From assembly GCA_964619725.1 (NCBI GenBank), contig CAZUFC010000019.1, positions 19,696 through 83,695 of the forward strand: a stretch of DNA of 64,000 nt. Reading direction: 5' to 3'. Positions 19,110 to 49,015 of this stretch are shown in pieces. The translations under genes were made by a program, and so were the position numbers. Each line of letters starts with the position of its first letter. The stretch's first letter is position 1. The notes under the pieces were generated by a model. It was given only the letters and a program-made list of their open reading frames with translations, searched no databases and had not been told where the DNA came from. Origin of the DNA: an uncultured bacterium. Its GTDB lineage: Bacteria; CSSED10-310; CAZUFC01.

Positions 19110-22100
19110 ATGAAACTTTTTAGGATGGCGAGAGTCTTGATTGTTTTTTTTGTTTTAATTTCAATAAGTTGTTCAGCCCTGGGTCATTATGGAGGATTTT
19201 ACGGATCAGACATGACCGGTTCGAAGGGATGGAGCGATGATCCGGCGGTGAATATACGCGTAAGTGCATCGCAGGGTGATCAGGCGAACCAGAGAGTAAT
19301 TTCTGACGGTCAGGGGGGTTTCATCACGGCCTGGGAGAGGTTGGGGGATATATTTGTACAGCGGCTGGACGAATATGGCGAGCGCGACTGGGGAACCGAG
19401 GGAGTGACGGTATGCGGTGATGCTTCATTACAGGAGATGTCGGGTATATGTCGTGACGGTTCGGGAGGCGCCATAATAGTATGGAGGGATGCTCGGAACG
19501 GGGTTATGGGAATCTGGGGACAGCGAATCGGAGCATCCGGGAGTCCCATGTGGACCATTGACGGCGTGCAGGTATCGGGAAGCGGCGATTATACGGGAGG
19601 TCAGGCGATATCGGATGATGCCGGCGGGGTTTATGTTGTGTATGAGGGATCAGAGAGCGGAGTTTTTTGTACGAGGTTAGACGGGATGGACGGAAGCGAA
19701 ATTTGGACCATTCAAACCGATGCATCCGGTATGCTGTGCAGTGGAACTGCGGCAGCGGAAGACGGAACGGGCGGAGTTTTGCTGGGATGGGAGAGGAGAA
19801 GCGTGCTGTTTTATGGAAAATTCGTGATGAGCATGGGAGGAGGAGCCAGGGACGACGGTTCGATATATTTAAAGGATACTATAGGGCAATCATCGCCTCC
19901 TGGAGAATCAAGCGATGAGAATTACAGTGTGAAAGGTGGATTCTGGAAGCCTACGCATGCGAATTTGCCGATAAGCGAAAGCGATATATATGTGCAGAGA
20001 CTTGATTCCGCCGGGACCGAATTATGGGGAGCCGGCGGCATATGTTTGTATGATACGTCTGAAGCGCAGAAAAATCCTCGAGCGGCATCAGACGGAAGCG
20101 GGTGCGGATTTTTCGTTTGGGAGGATATGAGGTCTCCGAGCAACACCAGGAGTCTGTATATACAAAAGATCGACAGTGGAGGTTCAATCGTATGGCGAGC
20201 TGACGGCGTTCAGGTATATGCCGGAGGAGCGAGCGAGTATGAGCTTATGAGTCATGCTGTAGTATCGGATTCTGAAGGCGGAGCGGTCATAACCTGGTGT
20301 GCTGGGAATCGTGATGTTTATGCAACCCGAATAGACTCAAACGGAGATAATGCCTGGGGGGGAGAGGTCGCTCTAACGGATCACGAAGAGACGTCGGGTG
20401 TATCGGATTATCCCTATCAATCGGTATCGGACGGACTGGGCGGAGCGTTTACGGTATTTTCACGCCGGAACGAGCCGGCAAACAGTTATGAGATAGTATG
20501 TCAGAGCGTCGCGTATAATGGAAGTTTACCCTGGGGAATAAACGGAGAAGCGGTATGCATTTATGCTCAGGGAGAGCGGTATAACGCATTGGTTGCGAAA
20601 TGCGACGGGAACATGACCGGCGCTCTATGTTGCTGGATTGACGAAAGGACAGTCGATTCGGAGGCCCTTTACGTAATGGGAATAAACCTCTACGGCGAAC
20701 TCGGCGATCCCTGTTCGACGCTTCCTACAATAACGCCCACATTGACGCCTGTTCCGCCTACGCCGACTCCTGAGCCGCCCACACTTACTCCGACTATTCC
20801 TCCGCCTCCGGCAGTCGTCTGGATCGACGATGACTTTAACGATTCGACTCCGGGCTGGGGTTACGATCATTTTTCAGTCATTCAGGCCGGCTTGGATGCC
20901 GTGGCTGACGGCGGCGATATATATGTTGCTTCCGGTCTTTACAATGAAACAATCGGCTTCGATTCATCATTTAATAAAAACAATATTTCCTTTTTCGGCG
21001 AATCCGGCGACAGACCGACGGTAGCAGGCGGCATGCATTTCGACAACGACGCAGCGATCTTAAATATTAACTTTGAAAACATGTATTTCAAAGGAGATGC
21101 CGGAGGTAATAATGCCGTAATAGGAATGACCAATTTGGGAGCTGTCCAGAATTTCAGCATGAAAAACTGCGTTATAGACGGAGAAAACGCAATCGACAGG
21201 CATGGATTGGCCGGTAAAAACTTTGAGGGTTCTTTTTCCGTCACGGATACGGAGTTCAAGAACATTTTGGGCTGGGCTGCAATGGATATGAACATCGACA
21301 GCCCGGATGGAGCGAATGAGCTGCCCATAAATTCGATCACATTCACAGGCAATTACATCCATGATTCAAACGGGGTAACCGCTTTAAGGGGAAATGAAAT
21401 CACGCGAAGCATCCTGGTTAATGTTGCCGATAATTCCTGGGACAACATCGGAGGAAACGGAGGAGCTGCAGGGGGACATTGGACGGCTCTGGAGGTCAAC
21501 CATTCTGCAGAAGTAAACATCTACGGCAATGCGATCAACGATGTCAGCCAGGGGCAGAATTCTGAAGGCAAAGCGATTATCGTGTGGGATATTGTAGAGC
21601 TCATCTGCCGTTGCAATGATATAACGAACAATTATGAGGGCATATACGTTTACGGGGGCGGCGGCGTTTATGGCGGTCCTTATGCCGTGCCTTTCGGATA
21701 TGTCGCATACAATAATATCATGAACAATTCCGAGTATGGTCTGACTGTCGATGATTATGCAACGGGGGACCCTCTAAGGGCCGACTTCAATTACTGGAAT
21801 GCGGCTGACGGTCCGGGAGGCGATGCCGAGGGAAGCGGGGATGCTGTTTACGGTAATGCCGTGTGGGAGCCCTGGCTGAATGCAGTGCAGGAGCCGCCTT
21901 GTCCGCCTCCCTGTTACAATGACGGCGATGTCGACAATAACGGGAGTTTAACCCCGAATGACGGCATGATGACATTCAGGATATACATCGGATACATTTC
22001 ATATCCGACTTACGAAGAGGAGTGTTCTTCAGATTGTGACGGAAACGGTTATATATCACCTGGAGATGGACAATGTATCTTCTGGAGTTATTTGGAGATG

Positions 22101-22736
22101 GGGTGCGAATGCGCTCAACCTGTGCAGAATTCCGTTCCGATGAACTATCCAGGTGAACAAAGAGAAAAGAAGAGCGACTCGCCGGATGCAATCAAACCGG
22201 AATATGGTAACCGGAAGATAATTGTCGGCTCTGCGCAGGGGTGCCGGAACGAAATCGTTTCCATACCCATTATCATGGATAGTGCGGATGCCCCTGTCGC
22301 TTCCTTCGGATTAACTCTTCAATACGACGGCAATATTCTGGAGTTCGTAGATGTCGATCACGGAGAATTAACGGAAGAATGGTTCCTTCTCGATGCTTAT
22401 CCTCAAAAACCCGGAATGCTCAAAGTGGGGGGATTCGATCTTTACTCTGAAATCCCCTCCAGAACCCGGGGCGCCCTTGCATATCTGAATTTTAGAGTCG
22501 TCTGCGAGGAATGCGGAAACGGAGAACAAAGCGAATGCCGGATAACGGACCTGCTGGATGATATTAAACATTTTGAAGCGAAAGACGGCCGGTTTACTTA
22601 TAACTGCATTTACCAGACCCCAACTGGAGTATTTCAGGAGATTCCCGCAATCATGCCCGGAGGATTAATACTGCTTACCGGTTTAATTTCAGCGATATTT
22701 CTTTTTTCGATTTGCAGTATTAGAAGGCGAAAATGA
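19110..22736 (+). CDS. Secreted modular surface protein: propeller-like repeats, P/T linker, beta-helix, dockerin-like, cohesin-like, IPTL-CTERM-like anchor
   Basis: Signal peptide; repeats DGxGG...W...D/IxxQR; PTPTP linker; parallel beta-helix; paired DxDxNG Ca-loops; cohesin-like IVSIPI..FGLTLQYD..LEF; tail IPAIMPGG-TM-RRRK. Confidence 0.8.
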   Translation: MKLFRMARVLIVFFVLISISCSALGHYGGFYGSDMTGSKGWSDDPAVNIRVSASQGDQANQRVISDGQGGFITAWERLGDIFVQRLDEYGERDWGTEGVTVCGDASLQEMSGICRDGSGGAIIVWRDARNGVMGIWGQRIGASGSPMWTIDGVQVSGSGDYTGGQAISDDAGGVYVVYEGSESGVFCTRLDGMDGSEIWTIQTDASGMLCSGTAAAEDGTGGVLLGWERRSVLFYGKFVMSMGGGARDDGSIYLKDTIGQSSPPGESSDENYSVKGGFWKPTHANLPISESDIYVQRLDSAGTELWGAGGICLYDTSEAQKNPRAASDGSGCGFFVWEDMRSPSNTRSLYIQKIDSGGSIVWRADGVQVYAGGASEYELMSHAVVSDSEGGAVITWCAGNRDVYATRIDSNGDNAWGGEVALTDHEETSGVSDYPYQSVSDGLGGAFTVFSRRNEPANSYEIVCQSVAYNGSLPWGINGEAVCIYAQGERYNALVAKCDGNMTGALCCWIDERTVDSEALYVMGINLYGELGDPCSTLPTITPTLTPVPPTPTPEPPTLTPTIPPPPAVVWIDDDFNDSTPGWGYDHFSVIQAGLDAVADGGDIYVASGLYNETIGFDSSFNKNNISFFGESGDRPTVAGGMHFDNDAAILNINFENMYFKGDAGGNNAVIGMTNLGAVQNFSMKNCVIDGENAIDRHGLAGKNFEGSFSVTDTEFKNILGWAAMDMNIDSPDGANELPINSITFTGNYIHDSNGVTALRGNEITRSILVNVADNSWDNIGGNGGAAGGHWTALEVNHSAEVNIYGNAINDVSQGQNSEGKAIIVWDIVELICRCNDITNNYEGIYVYGGGGVYGGPYAVPFGYVAYNNIMNNSEYGLTVDDYATGDPLRADFNYWNAADGPGGDAEGSGDAVYGNAVWEPWLNAVQEPPCPPPCYNDGDVDNNGSLTPNDGMMTFRIYIGYISYPTYEEECSSDCDGNGYISPGDGQCIFWSYLEMGCECAQPVQNSVPMNYPGEQREKKSDSPDAIKPEYGNRKIIVGSAQGCRNEIVSIPIIMDSADAPVASFGLTLQYDGNILEFVDVDHGELTEEWFLLDAYPQKPGMLKVGGFDLYSEIPSRTRGALAYLNFRVVCEECGNGEQSECRITDLLDDIKHFEAKDGRFTYNCIYQTPTGVFQEIPAIMPGGLILLTGLISAIFLFSICSIRRRK

Positions 22737-22795
22737 GTTTTCGCAGCCTTAAAATTCGTGTAAAGCATAAACACATCTCCTCGCAATTATTAATT

Positions 22796-22827
22796 CCGAT
22801 TGCGATACTGACCCCGATAACCGAAAC
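22796..22827 (+). repeat. Hexamer-repeat motif (cgattgcgatactgaccccgat)
   Basis: Same motif as 5203-5237 and 57197-57237. Confidence 0.55.
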
Positions 22828-22953
22828 GAACGGTCCTCAATGAAAAAGAACCGCCCTGATTCAGTCAAATAGATATTTGGGGCAGATATCAGCTTTAGTA
22901 TGAGGGATTTCAATATGCTCCGACATTTTCATGTCGGCAACTGAAAAGGAAGC

Positions 22954-22998
22954 GCAACGCAACAGCAATGCGCCTGAAGGGCTTTGCTGTTGCGTTGC
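22954..22998. terminator. Perfect 15-bp inverted repeat between convergent genes (bidirectional terminator or REP-like)
   Basis: GCAACGCAACAGCAA-N15-TTGCTGTTGCGTTGC; a second small hairpin CCGACAT-TTTC-ATGTCGG at 22920-22937. Confidence 0.6.
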
Positions 22999-23046
22999 AT
23001 GGTTGGTCCGTCGCTCCAGCAGCGAGCGGATACATTTATAAACGAA

Positions 23047-26000
23047 TCAATCGTTTCTTTTGCTGCCTATCTTCCTGGTAAGGAAACCCATAGTGAGAAT
23101 AAGGGTAATGATGCCGAACACAGAAAGAGCCGGGATGTCTCTGAAGCATGATTTTGAGGCTTGCTCGGTATTTCCGTAAGCGCCCATGTTGATGATGTCT
23201 CCATGCGGCGGGGGTTCACAATCACAAAGGTCTACTGGGTCTCCTGCGTCGATGCAAGGGGAACAGCTTTCATCCTCTCCCCAGGCGCCGTTATGATAGC
23301 TGCCGACGGTTGACTGGAGGTGGAAATCGCTGTTGTCCGGGTCTACGAATAAGGGGTCCTGATTCATATTGCCTTCGCCTTCGAATCCGCCTTGCACGTT
23401 AGAGTAAGTCATATCGATGACGGATAAACCGGAAGTTCCAATTTCATTGGGGAAATTATTCCAGAAAATGCAATTTTTAATGGTGGGTGAAGAATTCATG
23501 CAATGCAGGGCGCCGGCGTTCATTTGTGCGGAATTTTCGCTGAAGGTGCAATTCAGAAAAGTGGGAGAGGAATACCAGCATTCGACGCCGCCTCCGTAAT
23601 TTTGAGTTTCGTTGCCGATGATGAGGCAATTTTTAATGAGGACTTCGGGGTTGTCGCTGATGATGTGCAATCCTCCGCCCTGATCAACGGAAGAATTGTG
23701 AGCAATGGTGCAGTTTTCAAGAATGCAGCCAGAACCGATGTCAAAAAAGATTCCTCCGTTATGAACGCCGAAGTTGTCGCTTATGTTGCAGCCGATAAAG
23801 TGCGGCGAGGCGCTGTAGCTTTCGACGGCGCCGCCGAAATCAGCGGAGTTTGAGGTTATATCGGTGTTCGTAATAGTCGGATTAGAGAAATCCCTGCAGT
23901 AGAGCCCTCCGCCCATGCCGCCGGCGGAATTTCCGGTGATGATGCAATCGGTGATGACAGGCGAGGATGTGCTGGTGCAATAGACTCCGCCGCCGTCGGA
24001 AGCGGAAACGCATGATTCGACAAAGCAATCCAGTATAGCGGGCGAGGAATTCTGAATGTAAATGCCGGCGCCGTAAGTGGCGTTGCAGTTGCGGACCGTG
24101 AACCCGCTGACGATTGTATCATTGCCTTCTCCCCGGAAAACAATGAAACCTCTGCCGTCGTTTTCGCAGTCTATAATGCTGTTTTCGGGTCCATTGACCG
24201 ATGCGACAGTGATCGCCTTACCCATAAGATCGAGGTTTTTATTTCTATCGCCTGCGTATGTTCCTTCGTCGACGAGGACTGTATCGCAGTCAACCGCTGC
24301 ATCAATGGCTTCCTGTATCGTCTGAAAATCCTGGGGCACCAGAATAGTCGTACAGACATGAGTAGGGGTGCTGGTGGGCGTAAGGACTTGAGTCGGGGTT
24401 AATGTCGGTGTGGGGGAGTATGGTTGACAGTTTTCATAGGTCAACTGGTAATTGAAATATCCGCAACTTTCATAGGAATCAACGACTGCATAGTAAGTTC
24501 CGGGTTCGAGAGCGGTAAGCATTATGGTTTCGCCCTGGGCATCGCCGTTTTCATCTGCGTAGATGAAGCAGTCTTGCGGTTCCGGTCCATCCATAATGAG
24601 CAGAATGGGATCGTAGTCTCCGGGCGTGACGTTATCGATCTGAATCGTAACGTCGCAGTATTGGTTGTTAATGAAGACTATACCCAGGTCTTCCCCATTG
24701 AGCCCGGAAATACCGCATCCGTAATCCTGGTAATCGTCGAACCATCCGCAGTTGGTTTGAGGATTCGGAGTGGGGGTGTTGGGAGGGGTAGGAGATGGCG
24801 TGGATGTCAGGCAATTGTCGAGCGAATAGGAGAGGTTCCAGTATCCGCAACTTTCTTCAGCATCCACGACTGCGTAGTAGTTGCCGGGTTCCATGGCTGG
24901 GACGGTGATGCTTTCGCCGAGTCCTGCTCCGTTATCGTCGGCATAAGCGAAGCAATAGAGCGGATCAGGACCGTCAAGCAGCAGCAGAACGGGATCGTAA
25001 TCGCCGGGAGTGACGCTATCGATGGCGATGGTTACGTCGCATACCTGCTGAACGACGAAGAAGGTAACGAAATCCTCACCGAAAAGATCATACATTCCGC
25101 AGGCGTAATTCTGCCAGTCGTCGTACCATCCGCAATTGGTTTGCGGTATAGGGGTTTCGGTCGGTATAGGCGTCGGGGTCAGGCAATTGTCCATGGTTAT
25201 CGAAATGTTCCAGAATCCGCAATCCTGATAAGAATCGACCGTTGCGTAGTATGTCCCCGGCTCCATGGCCGTTATAGTTATGCTTTCGCCTTCCGCTGCA
25301 CCGTAATCGTCGGCGTAGGCAAAGCAATATTGCGGACCGGGGCCGTCCAGCAGAAGCAGAACAGGATCATAGTTTTCCGGAGTGATATTATCGATTGAAA
25401 TAGTGACGTCGCAAGTCTGTTGCACTACAAAAAAGGTGATGAAGTCTTCACCGGCGAGACCGGTCGGTCCGCAGGCGTAGTCCTCGAAGTCATTAAACCA
25501 TCCGCAGTTGGTCTGGGGGATGGGCGTATTAGTCGGGATGGCCGTGAAAGTGGGAGTATTCGTTGCGAACAGGGTTGGTGTGGGCGTAGGCGAATGAGAA
25601 TTGTTCAGCATGAATGACAGGTCCCAGTACCCGCATGATTCATACGAATCGACCACTGCATAATAATTTCCGGGCGCCATGGAATTGACCGTGATGGTTT
25701 CTCCCATTCCGGCCCCGTTGTCATCGGCATAGATAAAGCAGCTCTGAGGGTCAGCTTCGTTCAACAGCAGAAAGACAGGATCGTAATCTCCCGGAGTGAC
25801 GCCGGTGACAGTGAGGGTAACGTCGCATACTTCCTGGACCGTAAAGAAGGTTATGAAGTCTTCTCCATTCAGCCCGGTCAGCCCGCATGCGTAGTCCTGC
25901 CAGTCGTCGTACCACCCGCAGTTAGTTTGAGGAATAGGCGTTCGAGTAGGAATAGGCGTCGGGGTCAGGCAATCATCTATGGAGAGCGTAAGATTCCAGT

Positions 26001-30981: not shown

Positions 30982-31202
30982 AAATGAATTCCTCCTCCTC
31001 AATTCGCCGTTCAATCAATGCACGACGAATAATTGAACATAAAAGATTAAATTAATTCATTAAGCTGTTTCTTTTTCGATTCAAAACTATGAAGCTAACG
31101 CCGGAAACCTTCCCCTGTCAGGATTAACATGTTTCAATATACAACCAGGTCAAGCCTTCCGGCGCATCGCTTGAAATTAAACCGGTGAGAGATGATAATT
31201 GA

Positions 31203-36605: not shown

Positions 36606-36624
36606 TTCTGTTTCCCCTCCCCTT

Positions 36625-39600: not shown

Positions 39601-42600
39601 CGGAGTGTTCGGCGTTACGCTCGGTTGCGGCGTCGGATTGATCGACTGGGTCTCATCCGCTCCGATATCGACGATAAGACCGTTGTATGGGCGCGTATCT
39701 CCGTCATAATCGGTCAATGGCGCCAGGGTGTTTAGCCCCCGATCCACGCAGCAGGAGCTCGGCAAGATGTGATAGTCGTCAATGCCGACGAATTCAGGAT
39801 TGCAAGGCGGCGTCAGGTTTCCCTGTCCCGGATCGCCGCCCTGAATATTGCTGTAGGTCGCTGTTACAGCTTCCAGGTCATCGTTGTTCCCCCAGAGGAT
39901 GCAATTCCGAATCGTGGGAACCGCTCCTTCCGTCCCTCTTATGCCGTATCCGGGATTGTAAGCGATAGTGTCGTTAACGAATTCAGGCGTGCCTCCGTAA
40001 AGGTATATGCCGGTGCCCGCATTTTCGACCACAAATGTGTTGTATACTCTGGCTGATGACTCCTGAATGTAAAGGCCGTATCCAGTAGAAGCGTTATTCG
40101 GAGAAGCGCTTAAATTATTGTTTTTTATCAGCGCCCCGTCAAACTCTACATCGTTTAACCCCCCATTGATGTAGACTCCGCCTCCGCGGGCATATGCATA
40201 ATCATAGGAACCGTATCCTGCGCCTGAAGCTGTACAAAGACTGCCTTCAATCCTCGTGCTTCCGCCGATAAACGCTACTGTTTCGTCGGTGATGTAAATG
40301 CCGCCGCCGTATGCGTAGCCCCTGCCGCGACCATTGTAAGACGTATTCTGTCCGTAGGCTTGAGCTGTACTGCTTCTTATAATATCGCCTTTCATCTCCA
40401 GATCGCATCCTGCATCGCAAAATACTGTACCGCCGTAAGCAATTCCCTGACCGTAATACCCCTGGGAAGTGTTCCTGGCATCAGCATGCGCCTTGTTATT
40501 CTCATAGACATTTCCCCAGGATTTCACCGTGCAACCGTCCGCACAGTACAATGCTCCGCCGTAAGCATACTCCGTGAGCGTAGAGCCATATCCGCCGCTA
40601 TAATACGTATAAGCCAGGTTGTCGGAAATGGTGTTGGACTGGAGCGTTAATTCTCCGTCGCAATAAATGCCGCCGCCTCTCGTAGTTCTGCCTTGAGCAT
40701 TAAGTATTTGAATCGTGTTGTTGGAAATCGAGTTACCTTCAGCGTAACAGGAGCCTGCAGAGTGTACGTAAAGACCGCCGCCGCGATTGCTGGTGGAGCC
40801 CCCGTAACAGAGGTTGTTCTCGATTGTATTGTCTTCCAGATGAACCGTCGAATCCGCTGCGTGCACCGATACTCCGCCGCCGGCGTGACCTGATGTGTTG
40901 GCGAGTATCTCGTTACCGCTAATGACGATTTTATATCCGCCGCCGCAGTAAATTCCGGCTCCGTATGCTGCATCACCCTCAGCTATGTTGTTCTCGATCA
41001 GATTGTCGCCTACGAATATATTAACGCCCTCAAGATAAAGGCCGCCGCCGCATGCCAGATTACGGGCGCCGGGACTGCCGTAAGTGACGTTTTCCTGGAT
41101 TTTATTATTGGTGATGTTGACGTTTTCAGAACGGCTTACAGTAATGCCTGCTCCATAATCTCCAACGCCGTTCGTGACCATAAAGCCGTCTATTTCAACA
41201 TTTTTAACCTCCGATACCGTCATCACGGGATCATAAGCATCGCCGTCGACTACCGAAGGATAAACGTCAGGATTCCTAATTCCTCCGCCCGGGGGATACC
41301 CGCCCCATAAATAGAGGTTATCCGTGCACACCAGGTTTTCCACGTAAACATGCCCCGTCACATGGACGTAAGCGCCGCCGGCCGCTTCAGCCAGTTCAAT
41401 CGCCGCGGTTATGCTCGCCTTGGCCGTTCCCCAGCTTAATCCGTCATTCAAATCGTCGCCGTATAATCCGTCAACGTAATAATGGTCCGAAGGCGTCGGT
41501 TCAGGCGTCGGCGTTACGGCCGGCGTTGCGTAGGCCGTCGGTGAGGGATTGATGACGTCGACTTCATCCGCCCCCAGATCGGGAATGCCTCCTGCATAGG
41601 GACGAGGATCGTCGTCGAAATCATGATCGCGAATGTCGTCGTAACTCCCCCTGTCGACACAACAGGATTGCGGCTGCAAATGATAGTCTCCGCCGCCGAC
41701 GAACAGAGGATCGCATGGCGGACTTAAGTTGCCTTCGCCGGGATCCTTGCCCTGTATATTGCTGTATGTGGCGGAAACGCCTTCCAGATCATCGAGATTG
41801 CCCCACAATATGCAATTTCGTATCACTGGAGCGCTTCCTTCTGTTCCATAGATTCCGTAACCGTCGTTATAGACTATAGTATCGTTGATGATCATCGAAT
41901 TGCTCGAATAAAGATAAACCGCCGTATCAGGATGTTCTGCGATGATCGAATTGTAAATATCTACGCTGACATCCGATATGTACAGGCCGTAGCCGCGAAG
42001 CTGCGTGGCAGGACTGGCCGTAATATTGTTGCCGCGGATTACGGCGCTGTCGATATCCACATCACAATCCGGTCCGTAAACCGCTATGCCGCCGCCCCGG
42101 GAATAAGCATAATCATAGCTGCTGTACCCTGCGCCCGCAGCCTGACACCGGTTGTCTTCAACTATGGATTTTAAATTGATGTTGACGGTCGATAAGTCGG
42201 CACAGTGGACGCCTCCGCCGTATGCATAACCGGAACCGCGACCGTTGTAGGCCGTATTCACCCCGTAAGCGTAACAGGTGTTCGCCGACAGCGTATCGCC
42301 GCTTAACGTCACATCTCCGCCGCCTTCGCAGAATACCGCGCCTCCGTAGGCGAAACCCTGTCCGTAATAACCCTGACTGCTGTTGCGCCCTTCAGCGTGT
42401 GCAAGATTTTCATTATAAATGTTGCCGATGGAATGAACTATACCGCCGTCAGCGCAATATAGCGCGCCGCCGTAAGAACACTCTGTCAAAGTGGCGCCGT
42501 AACCTCCGTTGAAATAATTATAAGCCAGATTCCGCTCAATGACGCCGTTCACCATCGTTAAATTTCCGCTGCAGTAGACGGCCCCTCCCCTGACGGTTTT

Positions 42601-45270
42601 GTTGGTCGAGTTGATGCTCTGGATGGTATTGTCTGAGATAACATTACCGATCATATAGACCGTGGACATCGAGCCTACGAGAATTCCGCCGCCGATAGCA
42701 TTAACAGAGGAACATAAATTAAATTCCACGACATTATTCTCAAACATTACCGTTGAATCGGGATTGCCGAATGCTGCACCGCCTCCGGCAAAGGATGAAG
42801 TATTGTGTCCGATAGTGTTTCCGCCGATGTAATGGCTGTATCCGGCTCCGCAATACAATCCGGCCCCGTAGGACGTGCTTCCCGTCGCCAGGTTATAGTC
42901 AATATCGTTGTCGGTGACTTGTATATCTGCACCTGAAATGTAAATTCCGCCTCCCAGCGCCAGATTAGGCAAAACCGGGCTGCCGTATGCCGTATTTTCG
43001 GTGATCCAGTTGTTGTTTATAGTGACGTTCTGCGAACGGCTGACATGAATGCCGCCGCCGTAATCGCCGCGTCCGTTTTTGACGTTGAATCCGTCTACAA
43101 CAACGTTGGATACTTCACTGATCCTTATCACAGGCAGTAATGCAGACCCGTCGATGATAGTTAAATAAACGTCCGGGTTCCTCTCGAGGCCGCTCTGCGA
43201 ATAACCGCCCAGCAATACCATGTTGTTTCCCAAAACCAGATTCTCCACATAGGTTGCGGTCGCTACATGAATGTTGCCGTTGCCCGCAGCAGCCGCCATT
43301 TCCACTGCAGCCGAAATGCTCGCCTTTGCCGTTCCCCAGCTTAAACCGTTGTTCGAATCATCTCCGGTCTGACCGTTTACGTAAAAGTCATTGGCCGGCG
43401 TCGGCACGGGAGTATATGTTCCCGCCGGAGTAATGTAAACAGTCGGCGTTGGATTCAGATTCGTCGTCTCATCAGCGCCGATGTCGGGTATGCCGAAATT
43501 ATACGGCCGGCTCTCGCCGTCGAAATCATGGTCCCATATCAGGTCCGAAGTGCCCCTGTCCACGCAGCAGGAATTCGGGTAAATATGGTAATCGCCGTCG
43601 CCTATGAATAAAGGATCGCACGGCGGATTAAGATTGCCTTCGCCCGGATCAGCGTCCTGAATGTTGCTGTAAGTCGCCGTTACATCATATAAATCGTCTG
43701 CATTGCCCCAGAGAATACAGTTTCTTATCGTCGGCGTTCCGCCGTAACCCCGAATTCCTATTCCCCCATTGTAAGAGATCGTGTCATTCATCATTACAGT
43801 ATTCGAATCCTGAAGATAAACGCCTTCCCCATAGTTTTCCACGATAATGGAATTATATATATTTGCCGGAGCGTCAAGAATATAAATGCCCTCGCCGCAT
43901 GAAGCATTGTTGGGACTTGCCGTAATTTTATTGAAACGCACATAAACGCCGTCTATGTCAATGTCTGAACCGGCGCCCCAAGCTGCAATTCCTCCGCCGT
44001 AAGCATACGCATAATCATAAGAACTGTAGCCGGCGCCGACGGCATAAGCATGATTGCTGACAACTTCAACTCCCAGGCCTATGCTGACGACGGAATTACT
44101 TTTACATGCTATCGCTCCGCCATATGCGTACCCGTATCCCCGGCCGTTATACGCCGTATCCTGTCCATACGCATAAGCTAAATTGCCTTCCAGATGGTCG
44201 TTGTTGAAATCCGTCACGCTGCCGTCATCACAATAAACGCCTCCGCCGTATCCATAACCGTATGTGTATCGCTGCTGACTATTGTTTCGATTGTCCGCAT
44301 ACGCCGTGTTGTTGTTTATCATGTTGCCGGATAACAGAACATCGCTCCCGCTTGAACAAAAAATAGCTCCCCCAAACGCATACTTCTGCTTCGTACCGTT
44401 ATAATTGGCGCTGCTATAAGAATAAACCCAGTTGCCTGTAAACGTGTTGTTGATCAGGGTCGTTTCACAGACTGTGTACAGGCCTCCGCCCTCTGCATAA
44501 GTTCCGTGGCCGCCGGTCGAATATGCCGTGTTGTTCGATATCGTGTTGTTCGTCATCGGCAATTCGCTGGTTGCATCGGCGTAAATGCCCCCTCCGTAAG
44601 CGTTCGAAGCCGTGTTTATGTTGCCGCTTATTACGTTGTCCGTCATCGTTACGGTCGAATTCAACAGTATTATGCCCGCTCCGCCTGATGTACCCGAACA
44701 CGTGTTGTTTAAAACTTCATTATTCGTGAATGTCGCGGTCGAATCCTGAAAAGCCGCTCCGCCGCCTGAAGTCGTCGCCGCATTCTCCTCGATGATGCAA
44801 TCGTTTATCACGGCAGAGACGCCGGATGTGCATAATAATCCCGCACCCGTCGCCGCAGCGCCCGCTCGGATAGTGAATCCGTCCACTTCGACGTTGGATG
44901 CCGAAGATATCGTCAGGGTCGTTCCGCCGCTCGATCCGTCTATTCCTGTTTCATAGATCGCCGGATTGCGCGTGCCGCCGCCGTTCGGATACCCGCCCAA
45001 CAAGACGATGCCGTCAATATCAAGCGTCAGCCTCTCATAATAATATCCCTCGGCAACATGAACCGTGCAGGCCGACGAAATCAACGTCAACGCCGCTCCT
45101 ATCGTCGCCTTCGCATTTCCCCAGCTCAATCCGTCGTTGCCGTCGTCCCCGAACTCCTGATCAACGTAATAATTGCATTGAGCATCCGCCGAATTCATCG
45201 GGACTATCAGAAACAATACCCCCAATGCCAATAAAAAAATTTGATACGGGCTCACTCCTCTTTTCTCCAT
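36625..45270 (-). CDS. Giant secreted protein: 4 tandem beta-helix modules (Pmp-like GGA/GGG repeats), then dockerin-like and cohesin-like domains; no TM anchor
   Basis: Signal peptide ending ADA; 4x [YF]YV[DN]xxxGxDxNxGLSWxxAKA[TS]I ... D[IL]GADE; GNANGD..ADFNGDSAVNSADY; C-terminal domain similar to the cohesin-like domains of 31203-36605. Confidence 0.85.
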   Translation of the reverse strand: MEKRGVSPYQIFLLALGVLFLIVPMNSADAQCNYYVDQEFGDDGNDGLSWGNAKATIGAALTLISSACTVHVAEGYYYERLTLDIDGIVLLGGYPNGGGTRNPAIYETGIDGSSGGTTLTISSASNVEVDGFTIRAGAAATGAGLLCTSGVSAVINDCIIEENAATTSGGGAAFQDSTATFTNNEVLNNTCSGTSGGAGIILLNSTVTMTDNVISGNINTASNAYGGGIYADATSELPMTNNTISNNTAYSTGGHGTYAEGGGLYTVCETTLINNTFTGNWVYSYSSANYNGTKQKYAFGGAIFCSSGSDVLLSGNMINNNTAYADNRNNSQQRYTYGYGYGGGVYCDDGSVTDFNNDHLEGNLAYAYGQDTAYNGRGYGYAYGGAIACKSNSVVSIGLGVEVVSNHAYAVGAGYSSYDYAYAYGGGIAAWGAGSDIDIDGVYVRFNKITASPNNASCGEGIYILDAPANIYNSIIVENYGEGVYLQDSNTVMMNDTISYNGGIGIRGYGGTPTIRNCILWGNADDLYDVTATYSNIQDADPGEGNLNPPCDPLFIGDGDYHIYPNSCCVDRGTSDLIWDHDFDGESRPYNFGIPDIGADETTNLNPTPTVYITPAGTYTPVPTPANDFYVNGQTGDDSNNGLSWGTAKASISAAVEMAAAAGNGNIHVATATYVENLVLGNNMVLLGGYSQSGLERNPDVYLTIIDGSALLPVIRISEVSNVVVDGFNVKNGRGDYGGGIHVSRSQNVTINNNWITENTAYGSPVLPNLALGGGIYISGADIQVTDNDIDYNLATGSTSYGAGLYCGAGYSHYIGGNTIGHNTSSFAGGGAAFGNPDSTVMFENNVVEFNLCSSVNAIGGGILVGSMSTVYMIGNVISDNTIQSINSTNKTVRGGAVYCSGNLTMVNGVIERNLAYNYFNGGYGATLTECSYGGALYCADGGIVHSIGNIYNENLAHAEGRNSSQGYYGQGFAYGGAVFCEGGGDVTLSGDTLSANTCYAYGVNTAYNGRGSGYAYGGGVHCADLSTVNINLKSIVEDNRCQAAGAGYSSYDYAYSRGGGIAVYGPDCDVDIDSAVIRGNNITASPATQLRGYGLYISDVSVDIYNSIIAEHPDTAVYLYSSNSMIINDTIVYNDGYGIYGTEGSAPVIRNCILWGNLDDLEGVSATYSNIQGKDPGEGNLSPPCDPLFVGGGDYHLQPQSCCVDRGSYDDIRDHDFDDDPRPYAGGIPDLGADEVDVINPSPTAYATPAVTPTPEPTPSDHYYVDGLYGDDLNDGLSWGTAKASITAAIELAEAAGGAYVHVTGHVYVENLVCTDNLYLWGGYPPGGGIRNPDVYPSVVDGDAYDPVMTVSEVKNVEIDGFMVTNGVGDYGAGITVSRSENVNITNNKIQENVTYGSPGARNLACGGGLYLEGVNIFVGDNLIENNIAEGDAAYGAGIYCGGGYKIVISGNEILANTSGHAGGGVSVHAADSTVHLEDNTIENNLCYGGSTSNRGGGLYVHSAGSCYAEGNSISNNTIQILNAQGRTTRGGGIYCDGELTLQSNTISDNLAYTYYSGGYGSTLTEYAYGGALYCADGCTVKSWGNVYENNKAHADARNTSQGYYGQGIAYGGTVFCDAGCDLEMKGDIIRSSTAQAYGQNTSYNGRGRGYAYGGGIYITDETVAFIGGSTRIEGSLCTASGAGYGSYDYAYARGGGVYINGGLNDVEFDGALIKNNNLSASPNNASTGYGLYIQESSARVYNTFVVENAGTGIYLYGGTPEFVNDTIAYNPGYGIRGTEGAVPTIRNCILWGNNDDLEAVTATYSNIQGGDPGQGNLTPPCNPEFVGIDDYHILPSSCCVDRGLNTLAPLTDYDGDTRPYNGLIVDIGADETQSINPTPQPSVTPNTPTPVGTYTATPAANFYVDKVNGNDSNNGLSWATAKASINGALSIAGPDSFIHVARAVYHENIEIGSDTTVLGGYPIGGGERDPHANITLIDGGYRNSVVMIQGAADVIFDGFTVRHGEENAGAGLFVYDCEHVIVRNCVFETNIGGESGNYVRGGGAYFGRCYAFWVHDCSFMYNSVVGTEAGYGGGLFIETSALGAVEDNLFLENTSSFVGGGLACIDVDDTVIISGNAFSGNMASNAFTSSIVYGGGLFCSDTASPQILNNEFDGNWAYSTGRNSSGRGGAICMNGDSQVYGNTFTANQARCYISQNYGGHIYGYSYGGAVYIGLEGAPDIDANYFTGNWAYSYVSNSNQGRYSYGYSYGAALFCNSTAETMTISHCIIKENTSYAYGHNTAYNGRGYGYGYAGGIFINTDAKVEVIENTLIYDNVAKGQGSGYSSYDYGYGYGAGIYINDDVSSVTLDRLNIDGNDSTAIPNNWSGGDGIYSYSDDTVILTNSFITNNGGHGIYWHTGGPNVDIVNNTIVSNGNYGIYKNAGSLNIINCIVWDHSDDIEGVSATYSDIQDGDAGIGNISADPLFVGQGDYHIQMLSPCIDFGSNVAEPSTTLYDYDGNDRFFFYDIGADEYAGPPTFNLTAYLDGFYLVGSQRPTTIDIEFRFGTTPETADTVVASYEDIPLNANGQTGNIDLTGCPGGDLFLTVSHLNHLKVITENMVNVNYGTTANINLSDEDDLTFEPCYGIDPLGDEVDGMISLRGGNANGDAYVNASIDFIIWLLANGSTPGSGNWDERADFNGDSAVNSADYSEWLNQNGRVSFAPGFPAKDMASEKTDSGEFELKVRETGVADWPYIEVDVIYNAESPDTLIAVDAAIAYDPAFLGKPQMTADFLTKGMTDFSKGLGAPDLPDVYHYSKGALPGQTGIKVPAGANILYRLRFPLRTSVGFSGPEYESKLDLVPGFYGVALDKTLLLEMNKGASKQTAAEIRGTEQKITGTSN

Positions 45271-45323
45271 CTCGTATCCTCCTCCATTTCTTGAATGTTT
45301 AAAATTTGATTAGCCATATCCTT

Positions 45324-45357
45324 AAAATATAAAGAATCCGGGGCTTAACCGGATTCT
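45324..45357 (-). terminator. Intrinsic-terminator-like hairpin inside the 5' leader of the giant-protein operon
   Basis: Minus strand AGAATCCGG-TTAAGCC-CCGGATTCT followed by TTATATTTT. Confidence 0.55.
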
Positions 45358-45581
45358 CTACCTCCTTCGCTGACTCGATGCCAAAACGGAAAAAGCTCCA
45401 CCATTGCGAAACTTGTTCATGAAAGACTCATCCCTCTCTGTCGCCCTGTTCGCAGGCGCTTCATGCACAATGTCGATCACTTGAATTCCGTCCATCATTC
45501 CGAACTCAAAAAGCCTTTCCAGCTTTTGAATGAATCGATATCAACCTGATTTCGGTTCATTTAAAATGTATTGACGATTTC

Positions 45582-45611
45582 ATTATACACCGGCTTTTTT
45601 GCATAAGTCAA
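45582..45611 (-). promoter_or_regulatory. Near-consensus sigma70 promoter
   Basis: Minus strand TTGACT-N18-TATAAT. Confidence 0.6.
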
Positions 45612-45962
45612 TAGCAAATGTAAAAAAATGAACGGCTGTCGGGAAAATGGATGGAGGATTGGATGTTTGGAGGAATGAGGGGCGGCAGTTCGGCAAATTG
45701 TGAAAATTGGAGTGAAGAGACTATTGTCGGTTGGACGGATGGACGGCTTCGGCGGAGCCCTTCTCATCCTTAAATATTTTCAGCAACAGCGTTGTTTCGG
45801 TATAGATCGAAAATGTCGGCGTTGATCAAAAACAAATAATTCTGGCTTACACGTTCAGCTCACAGAGGTTCTATTTCGTACCCGATGCAGCGCTCTACCG
45901 GTTCCATAGAGCTTCAGCCTTCCAATCGCCTTAAAATATGTCGTATTAAATGACGCGGGAGA

Positions 45963-48872
45963 CTATTTCCGATCAACGGCGGATCGAATGATCGAGAACA
46001 ATGTGAGGGACATGAAAACCATGAGGAGCATGGAGCCTGCGGGTGATGATGCGGGGATATTTAATGCAGTGGGAGTTGCTGAAGGGGAGGGAGTTTGGGG
46101 CGTCGGGGCCGGCGTTCCTGCTGTGGGCGAAGCCAGGGGAAAAAGGAAGCTGGTGTAGCTGCTGCCGTCGCATACGAAATCGATTTTGCCCTGTGAATTG
46201 ATGTAGTCGTATTCGTATAGTCCCGAATGGACGATGTAACTGAGAGCGTCGAAGTTTAACGGCCCGTCGAAATCGAAGCATGATACAGCGTTAATATCGC
46301 CGAAGAATTCAGCATCCAGGAAAACCGTGTCTCCGAATAACCCTTCGAGCAGGCCATGAGTGATTACATAGGGCAGTTCATGAAGGAATGTCAAAGCATC
46401 GCCGTAGCTTTCGATCAGATCGGCGTTGTCATCGAACACCGGGTAGTCGGAATTTACTTTTTTTTCATACGCTTTCCTGAAGCATTCAGAAACGGAAGCC
46501 AGTCCGTCGCCGTCCAGATCAAGCCCCAGTTCGATACCGTCGTATAAGCTGCTTTCGCAGTCATAACCGGGATATGCGGTCGAAGAGCCGAATTGCTCGC
46601 ATCCCTGATTCAAAGCCATGAAGAAATGCCTGATGAAATAATTTCCTGAAGATGTGTCATCTTCTTCCGCAGCGCCCATGGAAACCACGTAAGCGTTCGA
46701 TAAATCCCTCATGAATCCGCCCCCGAAACAGCTTTCCGTGAAGAAAATTTTAACGGCTTCCGGGTTTATCATGGCGAAAAGATCGGCCATTTCATCGTCG
46801 GTTATGGAGCCGGCGAAGCTCAGCGTTTCGTCGAAAGAGAGGTAGTCCGACCAGTCGCCGTCCAGGTTGTAGTCCATGTTGTCGGAGTATCCGTCATTGT
46901 CGGTATCAGTCGCTGAGGGGATGAGGTCTTCGGGATCGGCCGTCTGCGCCAGACAGGCGAGATAGAGCGGATCGGAATCGGAATCGAAACCGATCATATC
47001 GAGCGTGTCGTCAAGGGCCTTGTCCACCAGACAATAATACTTTCCGTTGACCGCGTAGTATGGGTGATATCCCTGTTCCAGGCTGTATGCATCGAACCAG
47101 TCGTCTTCGTCGAACGCCCAGGGCGACGAGGACATCAAAACGTCTCCGTCATCGTCCCAATCGCACAGATCGACTTCATCCTCCTCGATTATCGTGTTGC
47201 GGTTCAAATCGCATTGAGCGTAACTGATTATTTTTTCAATGTAAATATCGCTGTCCGATGCCGTGCCGCCGCCGATCAGAGGCAAATCGACGAAATGACT
47301 GACCAGCTTGAAGCGATAATAAGAATCACCGGCGCTGATGGCGAAAGGATAATATGTAAAACAGGGAACGAAAGTCTCCATACCTTTCGGTACGTAATCA
47401 TATTTAACGCAGTTTACCTGTCCGCTTTCGATGAATTCCGTCTTGAATTCGTCTTCCCGGTAGTCCGGATCGTCATATTGCTCCTCATCTATGGGCCCCT
47501 CATAAACCGCATCAGGCGATTTGCCGTTCCAGTAGGGTCGTCTGGTCCTGGGCCCGTAATAACCGCTTCCATGTCCGTCGAAAACGAATAAAAGTAAATC
47601 ATCATCGTCAATTTCCGAAGCCAGACCCGCAAACGTGTTCTCCAGCGTCGTTAAATCGCTCGTTCCGTCTATCCAGGACGGATCGAACTGAGTCAAACTG
47701 CCCGGTACATTCGTATCAGGCGTCAGCAATATGATCTCGGCATCCGTGAATCCATATTTATCCTGCAGCACGTGATACGCAAGATTAATGTCGATCCAGA
47801 ACCGCTCTTCCGCGCTGCCCAGAAAAAGAACAGCTCTGCGGTCTCTTATACCGTCTCCCTTGCCTGATTTCCCGCTCGATTTCGGCCTCCCCTTTCTATC
47901 GCTCCCATAAAGAAATGGATATATCTCCTTCCTGACCTCTTCAGGAGTCATTATCCTGTCCGTCACGTAAATATCAATCAAACTTTCCGTTTTCCCGTAA
48001 GCGTCTTCGACCAATATACCTGTGGGATGATTCCCGTAATCGCCGGCAATCCCTTCAATGAAAAAAGAATCCTTTTCCGGCTCTCCCGAAATTTCATACC
48101 TCCCGTCCCCGTCCATATCCAGATGATATACTCTTCCTTCTGCCGGACAGTCGCAAAAATCGATGTGTATCTCCTCTTTGAAATACTCTCCGGGTCTGAC
48201 GGCCAGAGACGATCTGTGATGCAAAAAAGGCTCCCTTTCCCGGCAAATCGCTCCCTGGACCGCTCTCGAAATGCCCGCTTCATGGAAAAATCGGCCGAAC
48301 GATTCCTGCAGCGATGAATAACGGCCATTCCCGTCCATACTGGAATATTCGATGATACGTCGGCCGTTGACGATGAAAAAGTGAGGCGCCCGCTCTACTC
48401 CGAACATATCGGCAACAGCCCCTTCGGGATCGACATATCTTTTGAATGCTGCATTCTCCGCCGGAAATGATTTTCTTAATTGCTCTGCAGAGTCTCCCAC
48501 AGCCACGAAGATAACTTCTGCACCTTCCGGTTCCTCAAACTCCTTCGAGGATATCCGGCTCAGCGCCTTTATTCCGGCAAGACAGCCAGGGCACCGAACA
48601 GAACCGAAAAACAAGAGCGTACGGGAATGAAACATTTCATCCGAAAAAACTTCTTCGCCGTTTAAATCTGTGAGCCGAAAACTTGGAATCGCTGCGCCTG
48701 CCTGCAGGGCCGCTTTATGCCCAATTTCGGCTGCTTTCCCCATCTCGCAATGCCGATATCCTGCTTCCGATGCAACCTCAAAAAGAATCCCCGCAATTAA
48801 ACAAAAGCAGAAACAAAAAATGCGAAACCTTGAAAAATAATGGGATGACTTCGGATTCATCATTCTTTTCAT
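45963..48872 (-). CDS. Surface-anchored thioredoxin-like (CPGC) + clan CD (C13/legumain-like) cysteine peptidase with IPTL-CTERM-like anchor
   Basis: Likely start at M47 (48872); TlpA/redoxin fold PSFRLTDLNG..RCPGC..APHFFIVN; dyad motifs FVFDGHG and FFTESCFGGGF; P/T linker; tail IPASSPAG-TM-RSAVDRK. Confidence 0.75.
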   Translation of the reverse strand: MKRMMNPKSSHYFSRFRIFCFCFCLIAGILFEVASEAGYRHCEMGKAAEIGHKAALQAGAAIPSFRLTDLNGEEVFSDEMFHSRTLLFFGSVRCPGCLAGIKALSRISSKEFEEPEGAEVIFVAVGDSAEQLRKSFPAENAAFKRYVDPEGAVADMFGVERAPHFFIVNGRRIIEYSSMDGNGRYSSLQESFGRFFHEAGISRAVQGAICREREPFLHHRSSLAVRPGEYFKEEIHIDFCDCPAEGRVYHLDMDGDGRYEISGEPEKDSFFIEGIAGDYGNHPTGILVEDAYGKTESLIDIYVTDRIMTPEEVRKEIYPFLYGSDRKGRPKSSGKSGKGDGIRDRRAVLFLGSAEERFWIDINLAYHVLQDKYGFTDAEIILLTPDTNVPGSLTQFDPSWIDGTSDLTTLENTFAGLASEIDDDDLLLFVFDGHGSGYYGPRTRRPYWNGKSPDAVYEGPIDEEQYDDPDYREDEFKTEFIESGQVNCVKYDYVPKGMETFVPCFTYYPFAISAGDSYYRFKLVSHFVDLPLIGGGTASDSDIYIEKIISYAQCDLNRNTIIEEDEVDLCDWDDDGDVLMSSSPWAFDEDDWFDAYSLEQGYHPYYAVNGKYYCLVDKALDDTLDMIGFDSDSDPLYLACLAQTADPEDLIPSATDTDNDGYSDNMDYNLDGDWSDYLSFDETLSFAGSITDDEMADLFAMINPEAVKIFFTESCFGGGFMRDLSNAYVVSMGAAEEDDTSSGNYFIRHFFMALNQGCEQFGSSTAYPGYDCESSLYDGIELGLDLDGDGLASVSECFRKAYEKKVNSDYPVFDDNADLIESYGDALTFLHELPYVITHGLLEGLFGDTVFLDAEFFGDINAVSCFDFDGPLNFDALSYIVHSGLYEYDYINSQGKIDFVCDGSSYTSFLFPLASPTAGTPAPTPQTPSPSATPTALNIPASSPAGSMLLMVFMSLTLFSIIRSAVDRK

Positions 48873-48986
48873 AATTTTCTTACTCTCTTCCTGGCTGATG
48901 ATTTTAATCGTCGTTGACACAGTCCATATACTATTATTTAAGGAAAATATTTGTAAAAAACAAGGATTACTTGCGAAAAAGCGCCT

Positions 48987-49015
48987 TTGACATTTCATGG
49001 AATGATTCATAATTT
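48987..49015 (+). promoter_or_regulatory. Candidate sigma70 promoter for the iron ABC operon
   Basis: TTGACA-N17-TAATTT. Confidence 0.35.

Follow-up and report, generated by a model that had tools for sequence, protein, structure and literature searches.

Candidate cohesin-dockerin surface-display units with exosortase-type anchors in an uncultured diderm bacterium

Introduction

Can a bacterium with an outer membrane assemble surface complexes by the plug-and-socket logic of the cellulosome, and what would such complexes carry? The question is raised by a stretch of 64,000 nucleotides from an uncultured bacterium (contig CAZUFC010000019.1), referred to here as the window, in which five adjacent genes, P0001 to P0005, encode large secreted proteins (Table 1). 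Almost all that is understood about cohesin-dockerin assembly comes from Gram-positive cellulose degraders; elsewhere these modules are common while their partners and purpose are obscure. An original prediction, made from the DNA letters alone, had proposed a cellulosome-style complex of beta-helix proteins on membrane-anchored scaffolds in a diderm host, an interpretation that our results support in part and that is largely correct in its outline. The host is indeed to be regarded as diderm because its genome holds six Omp85 matches and one LpxC match. In our assessment, the locus is probably a non-cellulosomal cohesin-dockerin surface-display unit with exosortase-type anchors, in which binding between the modules is predicted.

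In the mechanism that we propose, P0004 would be exported through Sec as a cargo of four beta-helix units with a calcium-type dockerin near its C-terminus and a divergent cohesin behind it. This dockerin would plug into a cohesin of P0003, and the tail of P0003 would keep its stalk in the membrane; alternatively, a single small XrtH/ArtB-like exosortase would recognize and cut the tail and transfer the protein to some acceptor. The beta-helix heads would be displayed at the end of the stalk. P0002 would represent the same stalk and anchor with the heads fused to it, and P0001 a self-anchored protein with a plug and socket of a different class. Altogether, one genome offers 13 candidate pairs in three specificity classes, together with a natural fusion control in P0002.

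A cargo and a tandem-cohesin stalk encoded side by side

The layout that the original prediction described is confirmed by our analysis. It had listed five adjacent secreted proteins of 1015-2881 amino acids (aa), and all five are open frames with an N-terminal hydrophobic signal-like segment. It had singled out the largest as the only one without a C-terminal transmembrane tail, and P0004, whose C-terminal end reads ...ITGTSN with no hydrophobic tail, is the only untailed protein of the five. It had also read P0003 as a protein that opens with two cohesin-like domains on a long stalk with a membrane anchor. The first of these domains matches the Pfam Cohesin model (PF00963) at the border of its gathering cut-off of 24.1 bits, with 22.4 bits in the whole protein, which is sub-threshold, and 24.2 bits as a fragment; the second is homologous to the first. 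Cohesin paralogues of the same class on contig C106 pass the model with 29.8, 30.1, and 25.0 bits. The stalk, whose makeup had been overlooked, resolves into seven PPC/DVUA0089-type repeats (NF038127 in six stretches, seven PQTNCG repeat starts) and a membrane-proximal beta-helix, and the anchor is present at its end.

The cargo, P0004, is dominated by right-handed beta-helix (Pfam Beta_helix 188.8 bits in eight stretches and NosD 55.3 bits; NCBIfam choice_anch_Q in four stretches). A search of its first beta-helix unit against PDB sequences gave no match at E ≤ 0.01 and therefore no clue to enzyme or adhesin function. The heads may be adhesins or polysaccharide-active enzymes, and enzyme activity is conceivable because beta-helix folds can conceal lyases or hydrolases.

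Dockerins carry two tandem calcium loops with Asp or Asn at loop positions 1, 3, 5, 9, and 12 and a helix after each loop. A paired calcium-loop segment of this kind had been predicted in P0004, and its position is confirmed, with loop 1 starting from 37344 and loop 2 from 37242. Loop 2 fits the 12-residue pattern, and loop 1 has one extra residue before its last Asp. In the Dockerin_1 (PF00404) search suggested at the outset, the isolated segment reached 19.0 bits (E 0.0017) against a cut-off of 22.9. An AlphaFold2 model of P0004 residues 2517-2881, built from a 10-row alignment, places two helices in the dockerin at 137-147 and 171-180, with a predicted local distance difference test score (pLDDT) of 49-70. 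The same model puts strands (E5-110, pLDDT 35-69) in an all-beta module that precedes the dockerin; this module matches no Pfam family and is kept in eight giant paralogues. Those eight are otherwise 44-51% identical, yet their dockerins are nearly invariant at calcium-ligand positions and helix residues.

Behind the dockerin lies a terminal domain that the original prediction overlooked. No Pfam model matches the last 170 residues of P0004; by BLASTP the domain is 35% identical to P0003 cohesin 1 (E 4e-16). AlphaFold2 models it, at pLDDT 72-87, as a flattened beta-sandwich (jelly-roll) like those of solved cohesins. In a Foldseek search of the PDB, cohesin chains fill the list down to rank 14 apart from GH9 endoglucanases at ranks 5, 6, and 12, and CBM3-type sandwiches follow further down. 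The cohesins among the top matches include 5k39_A (E 3.5e-4, TM-score 0.44) and 6kge_A (TM-score 0.51), with probability 1.0.

The C-terminal end of P0004 also has relatives elsewhere. A phmmer search with its last 257 aa against 1.84 billion representative proteins at E ≤ 0.001 returned 88 proteins, with both the dockerin and the cohesin part covered in three of them. Among the 35 top hits, Dockerin_1 is over its cut-off in 12 and sub-threshold in three more, and Cohesin is over its cut-off in three. One hit, P0032, has a Cohesin match of 30.1 bits and is 43% identical to P0003 cohesin 1.

The adjacency of the two genes does not appear to be a product of assembly. Contigs from two samples span the P0004/P0003 junction with zero differences, and we therefore dropped a repeat-caused artefact as an explanation. 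The DNA of the locus is present in four DNA runs of one study, labelled as microbial mat metagenome, and no RNA run is listed as containing it. As a separate observation, contigs of several samples diverge from the window at 37269, 42883, and 33756, positions in the conserved dockerin and at repeat borders. Such departures are expected there because paralogues share near-identical stretches, and assemblies of these giant genes therefore need to be read with caution.

One chassis in two forms

The neighboring P0002 has beta-helix units (Beta_helix 189.4 bits, NosD 110.8 bits) at the place where P0003 has its cohesins, followed by PPC repeats and a tail beginning DIPALS. Over 1346 aa, its stalk, beta-helix, and tail are 67% identical to the C-terminal part of P0003. 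This comparison suggests one chassis in two forms, with the heads fused in P0002 and, in P0003 together with P0004, sockets for a head that is encoded separately. In our view, no other single argument speaks as strongly for docking. Because untailed cargo and tailed stalk are separate proteins and P0002 supplies a fusion control, partner choice is directly testable with small recombinant modules.

P0001 combines plug, socket, and anchor in one protein. Its cohesin lacks detectable BLASTP similarity to the cohesins of P0003 and P0004, and on this basis we assign the P0001 modules to class A and those of P0003 and P0004 to class B. The original prediction had credited P0001 with a dockerin, a cohesin, and an anchor. 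The cohesin (33.3 bits in the whole protein, 37.3 bits as a fragment, clearly over the cut-off) and the anchor are borne out, as are the two calcium loops, both of which fit the 12-residue pattern. The dockerin, by contrast, has no Dockerin_1 match, and its segment shows only an EF-hand match at E 0.028. It belongs to a family of 24 members in the genome, nine of which overlap Dockerin_1 sites, all nine over the cut-off.

Two further observations concern proteins of this self-anchored type. The N-terminal 560 residues of P0001 (19110-20800, plus strand) consist of repeats of about 50-60 residues (…SDGxGG…W…D…Y.QR.D..G…W…GV.V) that match no Pfam or NCBIfam model and look, from their sequence, like beta-propeller blades. 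In another part of the genome, an open frame of 12,092 aa (G000:C34:1691-37966, plus strand) has a class-A dockerin, a cohesin, and a sorting tail at its C-terminal end, making it a giant self-anchored member of this system.

Cargo-scaffold pairs across the genome

A count of such modules throughout the genome had been proposed as a check on the locus, and it shows that the gene pair recurs about a dozen times. The host bin (designated G000) comprises 9.17 Mb in 344 contigs, with completeness of 90.9% and contamination of 6.5%. Pfam models alone find 34 Cohesin sites at E ≤ 0.01, 31 of them over the cut-off (two of these only together with their neighbors), and 13 Dockerin_1 sites, of which 11 exceed the cut-off; none of the 13 corresponds to a class-B dockerin. 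Iterated searches seeded with the four window modules, run on 8185 stop-to-stop open reading frames (ORFs) of at least 150 aa, extend this to 68 cohesins (54 class A, 14 class B) and 32 dockerins (24 class A, eight class B) in 47 ORFs, overlapping 31 of the 34 Pfam cohesin sites and nine of the 13 Pfam dockerin sites.

Fifteen ORFs carry cohesins only, in one to five copies, and every one of them ends in a tail. Immediately upstream of 13 of the 15, on the same strand, is an ORF with a dockerin. In all 13 pairs the cargo is untailed and the module class of cargo and scaffold agrees (11 A-A, two B-B). The second class-B pair lies on contig C106, where a giant of 2906 aa precedes a tailed three-cohesin protein of 1103 aa. 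Six more giants of 2889-3514 aa share the class-B dockerin-cohesin end, and several of them sit at contig ends where their neighbors are out of view.

Beta-helix proteins dominate the cargo. Among the 19 other dockerin-bearing ORFs (Pfam, E ≤ 1e-6), 13 carry Beta_helix or NosD, and the remainder carry Laminin_G_3, PLD-like with TIG, CARDB/CarboxypepD_reg, FG-GAP_2, or CBM_4_9; one has a cohesin match only and one has no match. At that threshold, none of the 19 has a glycoside hydrolase (GH) catalytic family. The original prediction had recognized no GH domain in the window, and in the five window proteins we likewise find neither a GH nor a carbohydrate-binding module (CBM) family at E ≤ 0.1 in Pfam. 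A cellulosome is defined by dockerin-borne GHs and a CBM-bearing scaffoldin; on these results the system does not qualify as one, with a single CBM_4_9 among the 19 other dockerin proteins.

One feature of the cargo invites a different interpretation, which the original prediction had not taken up. In 28 of the 32 dockerin-bearing ORFs a cohesin directly follows the dockerin, so the tandem could act mainly on itself, either by capping in cis or by linking cargos head to tail to form a coat or matrix. In that case the cohesins of the stalk would be only a starting point, or would bind something else. In a quick tree, the cargo-terminal class-B cohesins form a clade separate from the stalk cohesins with support of 100 and those of class A largely form a clade of their own, which argues for a distinct conserved role. 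P0013, a Bacteroidota-type protein among the phmmer hits, has the same dockerin-cohesin order ahead of a type IX secretion system (T9SS) tail. However, this idea leaves unexplained why 13 of the 15 cohesin-only anchored proteins are encoded directly after a cargo gene, and we judge it unlikely. The same tree shows class-A cargo subgroups that parallel the subgroups of their own scaffolds, a correspondence that would fit duplication of whole pairs.

Predicted docking and the points against it

We return to the reading in which P0003 serves as a docking stalk for P0004. A structure prediction of P0003 cohesin 1 with the P0004 dockerin and two calcium ions gave a median score of 0.45 (runs 0.45, 0.67, and 0.42), with at least 94% of contacts agreeing between runs, cohesin pLDDT of 93, and partner pLDDT of at least 76; the best of three controls scored 0.00. 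In the calibration of this score, 116 of 157 solved complexes reached the mark, as did two of 215 mismatches, and the region at or below 0.60 held 18 of the 157 solved complexes and both of the passing mismatches; our run departs from the calibration in using custom alignments and a riding ligand. Since solved cohesin-dockerin complexes exist, the pass may reflect likeness to them only. We take the prediction as a small increment in favor of docking and not as evidence that this pair binds.

Several considerations weigh against docking. The complex prediction is weak, both window dockerins fall under the Pfam cut-off, and neither P0003 cohesin 2 nor the P0004 terminal domain has a Pfam match. 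The AlphaFold2 model of the P0004 C-terminal region is of low confidence overall (mean pLDDT 58), and the class-B cohesin profile matches PDB sequences weakly (ScaC cohesin 5lxv_A E 0.041; 3ul4_A E 0.31). Comparison of classes A and B by hhalign (dockerin E 0.049, cohesin E 0.022) was no better than its cross-controls (0.093 and 0.056) and is thus uninformative. Matching classes within pairs are expected from gene-pair duplication and are therefore not independent evidence of binding. Because the cargo has a cohesin next to its dockerin, the dockerin might instead be engaged in cis or by a second cargo. The host bin is contaminated to the degree given above. Finally, for a tail-anchored protein in a diderm, we know of no route through the outer membrane.

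Some of these points would equally suit an explanation in which the modules are structural beta-sandwich and calcium-binding spacers that have lost their mutual binding. The proteins would then be independent adhesins, matrix, or S-layer-like proteins, tail-anchored or released, and gene adjacency would stem only from co-regulation and duplication. The accessible text of PMC5244752 and PMC9012536 describes non-cellulosomal cohesin and dockerin modules as widespread and without assigned function, the window scores lie at or below the Pfam thresholds, and the complex prediction adds little. The near invariance of the dockerin calcium-ligand and helix residues in the eight paralogues is hard to reconcile with a mere spacer, as are the 13 pairs in which plug and socket are strictly divided between an untailed and a tailed partner and the example of P0002, in which the stalk carries beta-helix heads. 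Loss of binding strikes us as quite improbable.

C-terminal tails and a single exosortase

Four of the five window proteins (P0001, P0002, P0003, and P0005) end in a tail in which an [IV]PA.. motif is followed by some 20 hydrophobic residues and then by a basic cluster. A search pattern built on this form ([IV]P[ATSV], two to eight residues, [GAS], a hydrophobic run, and a basic residue) occurs at 191 of 8185 ORF ends, compared with 0/4398 and 1/4398 internal windows and 4/8185 N-side windows; the excess at C-termini over internal windows means that the tail family is not a product of chance. A Gly stands seven residues past the Ile or Val in 141 of the 191, and Pro/Thr-rich linkers precede the motif.

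The genome has a single exosortase-family gene, which encodes a 190-aa protein (G000:C134:12958-13527; L001:1453-2025, minus strand) with matches to TIGR04178 (65.7 bits, cut-off 23) and PF09721 (37.5 bits, cut-off 25.7). It is nearest to ArtB (78.2 bits against a cut-off of 150) and XrtH (76.6 against 86), below the cut-off of both. A 214-aa membrane ORF without a family match overlaps the end of this gene (L001:837-1481). This one enzyme, which co-occurs with the 191 tails, may process them.

The original prediction had called the anchors IPTL-CTERM-like. The layout does resemble that family, and the resemblance falls short of membership because the tails lie outside the model and the exosortase is below the XrtH and ArtB cut-offs. 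The IPTL-CTERM model (TIGR04174, cut-off 20.5 bits) gave no match to the four window tails at E ≤ 10, and none of the NCBIfam sorting-signal models matched them, apart from a weak hint of midcut-by-XrtH for the P0003 tail (E 0.091). Genome-wide, IPTL_CTERM has nine sites at E ≤ 1, two over the cut-off and none within the window, and VPxxxP_CTERM has none over its cut-off.

The tails could, then, be plain inner-membrane anchors that are not exosortase substrates, which would make the complex periplasmic or bound to the inner membrane. The missing NCBIfam matches, an exosortase under every specific cut-off, and the outer-membrane barrier mentioned above all favor this possibility. However, a conserved motif of the PEP-CTERM kind is typical of sorting signals and not of plain anchors, and here the motif stands at a fixed distance before the helix, with an invariant Pro (by the search pattern), the frequent Gly at +7, and a basic cluster after the helix. 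An exosortase is furthermore present in every genome of the phylum that was searched. We regard plain anchoring as unlikely, and continue with the reading in which the tails would be sorting signals and the displayed heads would reach the cell surface. On this reading, the cohesin and dockerin modules are tied to a signal of exosortase type that lies outside every curated model, which bears on the roles of exosortase substrates on diderm surfaces.

Relation to known cohesin-dockerin systems

In the cellulosomes of Bacillota, anchoring scaffoldins bear cohesins and are held by SLH domains or sortase. Like them, P0003 is a tail-bearing, presumably cell-anchored tandem-cohesin protein with its dockerin partner encoded nearby, and, as in type II X-dockerins, the P0004 dockerin has two calcium-loop and helix repeats after an extra module. 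The differences are considerable. The host is diderm, the anchor is an [IV]PA..G motif with a transmembrane helix and basic tail alongside an exosortase-family enzyme instead of SLH or LPXTG, and neither a GH nor a CBM was found on the scaffold. Moreover, the cargo here has a cohesin of its own, and each cargo gene has a scaffold gene of its own, in place of one scaffold for many enzymes. The Bacillota anchoring scaffoldins are summarized in the available portion of PMC9012536.

Exosortase H with IPTL-CTERM and archaeosortase B with VPXXXP-CTERM are sorting systems that pair an enzyme with a signal (NCBIfam TIGR04177, TIGR04174, TIGR04144, and TIGR04143). The host resembles these systems in its small 190-aa enzyme and its large set of proteins with a Pro motif, a transmembrane helix, and a basic cluster, and departs from them in the sub-threshold scores of the enzyme and in its tails, of which the first signal model passes only two genome sites, both outside the window, and the second none.

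Two systems outside Bacillota are also comparable. A cellulosome-like complex has been proposed, from genomes only, for Candidatus Stygibacter in the diderm candidate phylum Cloacimonadota; according to the accessible text, its scaffold has a T9SS C-terminal domain and CBM2/CBM3, and its cargo includes GH18, GH57, and peptidases (PMC8542988). Our proposal is likewise derived from genomes alone, but it differs from what that text describes in its exosortase-type anchor, its beta-helix cargo, and its many cargo-scaffold gene pairs. Anaerobic methanotrophic (ANME) archaea have many non-cellulosomal cohesin and dockerin proteins, including scaffoldin-like proteins with up to five cohesins, for which the portions available propose a role at the cell surface with mainly substrate-binding and S-layer proteins as cargo (PMC9012536, PMC5244752). 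As in ANME, cohesin and dockerin proteins with no relation to cellulose are numerous in the host; unlike ANME, the host is bacterial, and the same portions do not describe paired cargo-scaffold operons or exosortase-type cohesin anchoring. In addition, a preprint on giant genes reports, in its accessible part, dockerin-rich giant proteins in Omnitrophota.

In searches of the literature on cohesin, dockerin, exosortase/PEP-CTERM, and candidate phyla, we found no published description of exosortase-anchored cohesins, and the accessible text that covers cohesin, dockerin, and exosortase treats the modules and the enzyme separately, without linking them. Four features appear to be new relative to the literature found: anchoring of exosortase type, a dockerin-cohesin tandem in almost all cargos, phylum-wide presence, and an operon design of one cargo and one scaffold that recurs 13 times across three classes. 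Protein assembly might also make use of orthogonal pairs that come from a non-clostridial organism.

Occurrence in the phylum

Among species-representative genomes, the 13 nearest to the host are all related to it at the level of phylum only. Pfam Cohesin is over its cut-off in 14 of 14 phylum genomes, the host included (1-25 sites at E ≤ 1e-4), and an exosortase orthologue with 38-58% identity is present in 14 of 14, as a single match in 13 and as two in one. Four stretches of relatives were inspected, and the cargo-scaffold pair was seen in two other genomes of the phylum. In G005, which belongs to a different family, a dockerin-cohesin cargo of 2005 aa precedes a three-cohesin protein that has a dockerin in place of the tail at its C-terminus (L041:3659-12157, G005:C25), an adaptor-scaffoldin layout that would imply hierarchical assembly. 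In G011, a dockerin-ended 1158-aa protein precedes a three-cohesin ORF ended by the contig edge.

The particular C-terminal end of P0004 is less widely distributed. Its alignment found three loci in species-representative genomes (one Saprospiraceae and two Pirellulales metagenome-assembled genomes), chiefly in the dockerin region, and a profile of it run over 41 relatives found only the host and one other genome, the latter in the dockerin part only. Because these loci are few and only three of the 88 phmmer hits cover both parts, we conclude that the class-B dockerin-cohesin end is rare outside the host genome.

A bolder reading, which we hold to be doubtful, is that this small and poorly sampled diderm phylum uses cohesin-dockerin docking as a general mode of surface building, in which every giant beta-helix head comes with a multi-cohesin stalk gene of its own, the stalk is sorted by a new exosortase signal ([IV]PA..G), and the terminal cohesins of the cargo dock further cargos. 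If true, the result would be branched, class-specific (A1, A2, and B) protein assemblies, or else a coat, in effect a cellulosome analogue made of protein alone, which might serve adhesion or work on the polymers of microbial mats.

Remaining genes of the window

Table 1. Features of the five-gene locus, in window coordinates
Feature	Position	Strand	Basis or remark
P0003, 1800-aa anchoring scaffoldin candidate	31203..36605	-	start 19 nucleotides past P0004 stop
P0003 cohesin 1, scaffold-type class B	35931..36425	-	Pfam Cohesin 24.2 bits (fragment)
P0003 cohesin 2, scaffold-type class B	35466..35921	-	41% identity to cohesin 1, E 1e-40 (BLASTP)
P0003 stalk, seven PPC/DVUA0089-type repeats, Pro/Thr linkers	32586..35240	-	PPC 66.1 bits; NF038127 80.7 bits
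P0003 membrane-proximal beta-helix and Disaggr_assoc	31386..32483	-	Beta_helix 62.1 bits; Disaggr_assoc 28.9 bits
P0003 C-terminal sorting/anchor tail	31206..31310	-	PIPAFS..G, transmembrane helix, KKKR
P0004, 2881-aa secreted cargo	36625..45270	-	four long right-handed beta-helix units, no membrane tail
P0004 residues 2517-2632, all-beta module at X-module-like position before dockerin	37375..37722	-	AlphaFold2 strands
P0004 dockerin, type B, two calcium-loop and helix repeats	37138..37374	-	Dockerin_1 19.0 bits, sub-threshold
P0004 terminal cohesin-fold domain, cargo-type class B	36628..37137	-	homology to P0003 cohesin 1; AlphaFold2 and Foldseek
P0002, 2655 aa, P0003-type stalk and anchor with fused beta-helix heads	23047..31014	-	67% identity to P0003
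P0001, 1208 aa, self-anchored: repeats, beta-helix-like middle, dockerin, cohesin, tail	19110..22736	+	
P0001 dockerin, type A	21900-22145	+	weak EF-hand matches; 23 paralogues
P0001 cohesin, type A	22209-22637	+	Pfam Cohesin at 22218-22499
P0001 tail	22638-22733	+	EIPAIMPGG..
P0005, 1015 aa, AhpC/TSA, legumain/metacaspase-fold domain (46521-47903), tail	45963..49010	-	

The fifth gene of the locus, P0005, encodes a tailed protein with a thioredoxin-like domain (AhpC-TSA 44.1 bits) and neither cohesin nor dockerin. Its second domain is modelled with a C13/C14 caspase-haemoglobinase fold and a putative His...Cys dyad that follows consecutive beta-strands; VIA-align ranks it with legumain (5obt_B, Z 16.2, root-mean-square deviation 2.8, 172 aligned), metacaspase (6w8r_A, Z 15.3), and GPI transamidase (7w72_K, Z 14.9). 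Both dyad residues are conserved in at least 90% of 13 sequences, and at the sequence level there is no Pfam C13 or C14 match at E ≤ 0.1. The protein contains a low-confidence insert of about 170 residues, and its homologues are 47-71% identical, with extra domains that vary. As a surface-sorted, transpeptidase-like candidate, P0005 might process its giant sorted neighbors.

We also weighed a defence or toxin role for the locus; nothing matched, and both ideas were abandoned. PADLOC gave no matches to the five window proteins, which therefore correspond to no known defence system, and a tRNA scan of the window found none.

The flanks of the window hold RND/HlyD (resistance-nodulation-division) efflux parts, ATP-binding cassette (ABC) transporters, glutamine synthetase, and two PMT/TMEM260-like glycosyltransferases. 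On one side, a 1344-aa frame (5348-9382, minus strand) combines AcrB/MMPL-type RND regions with a C-terminal ABC ATPase (ABC_tran 91 bits) and adjoins a normal 1006-aa AcrB and an HlyD-type adaptor; this may be an unusual fusion, or two genes may have been run into one frame. On the other side, two neighboring 640-aa proteins (53228-57096, plus strand) have PMT_2/TMEM260-like protein O-mannosyltransferase regions and tetratricopeptide (TPR) repeats, and this pair might glycosylate the abundant Pro/Thr-rich linkers of the neighboring surface proteins.

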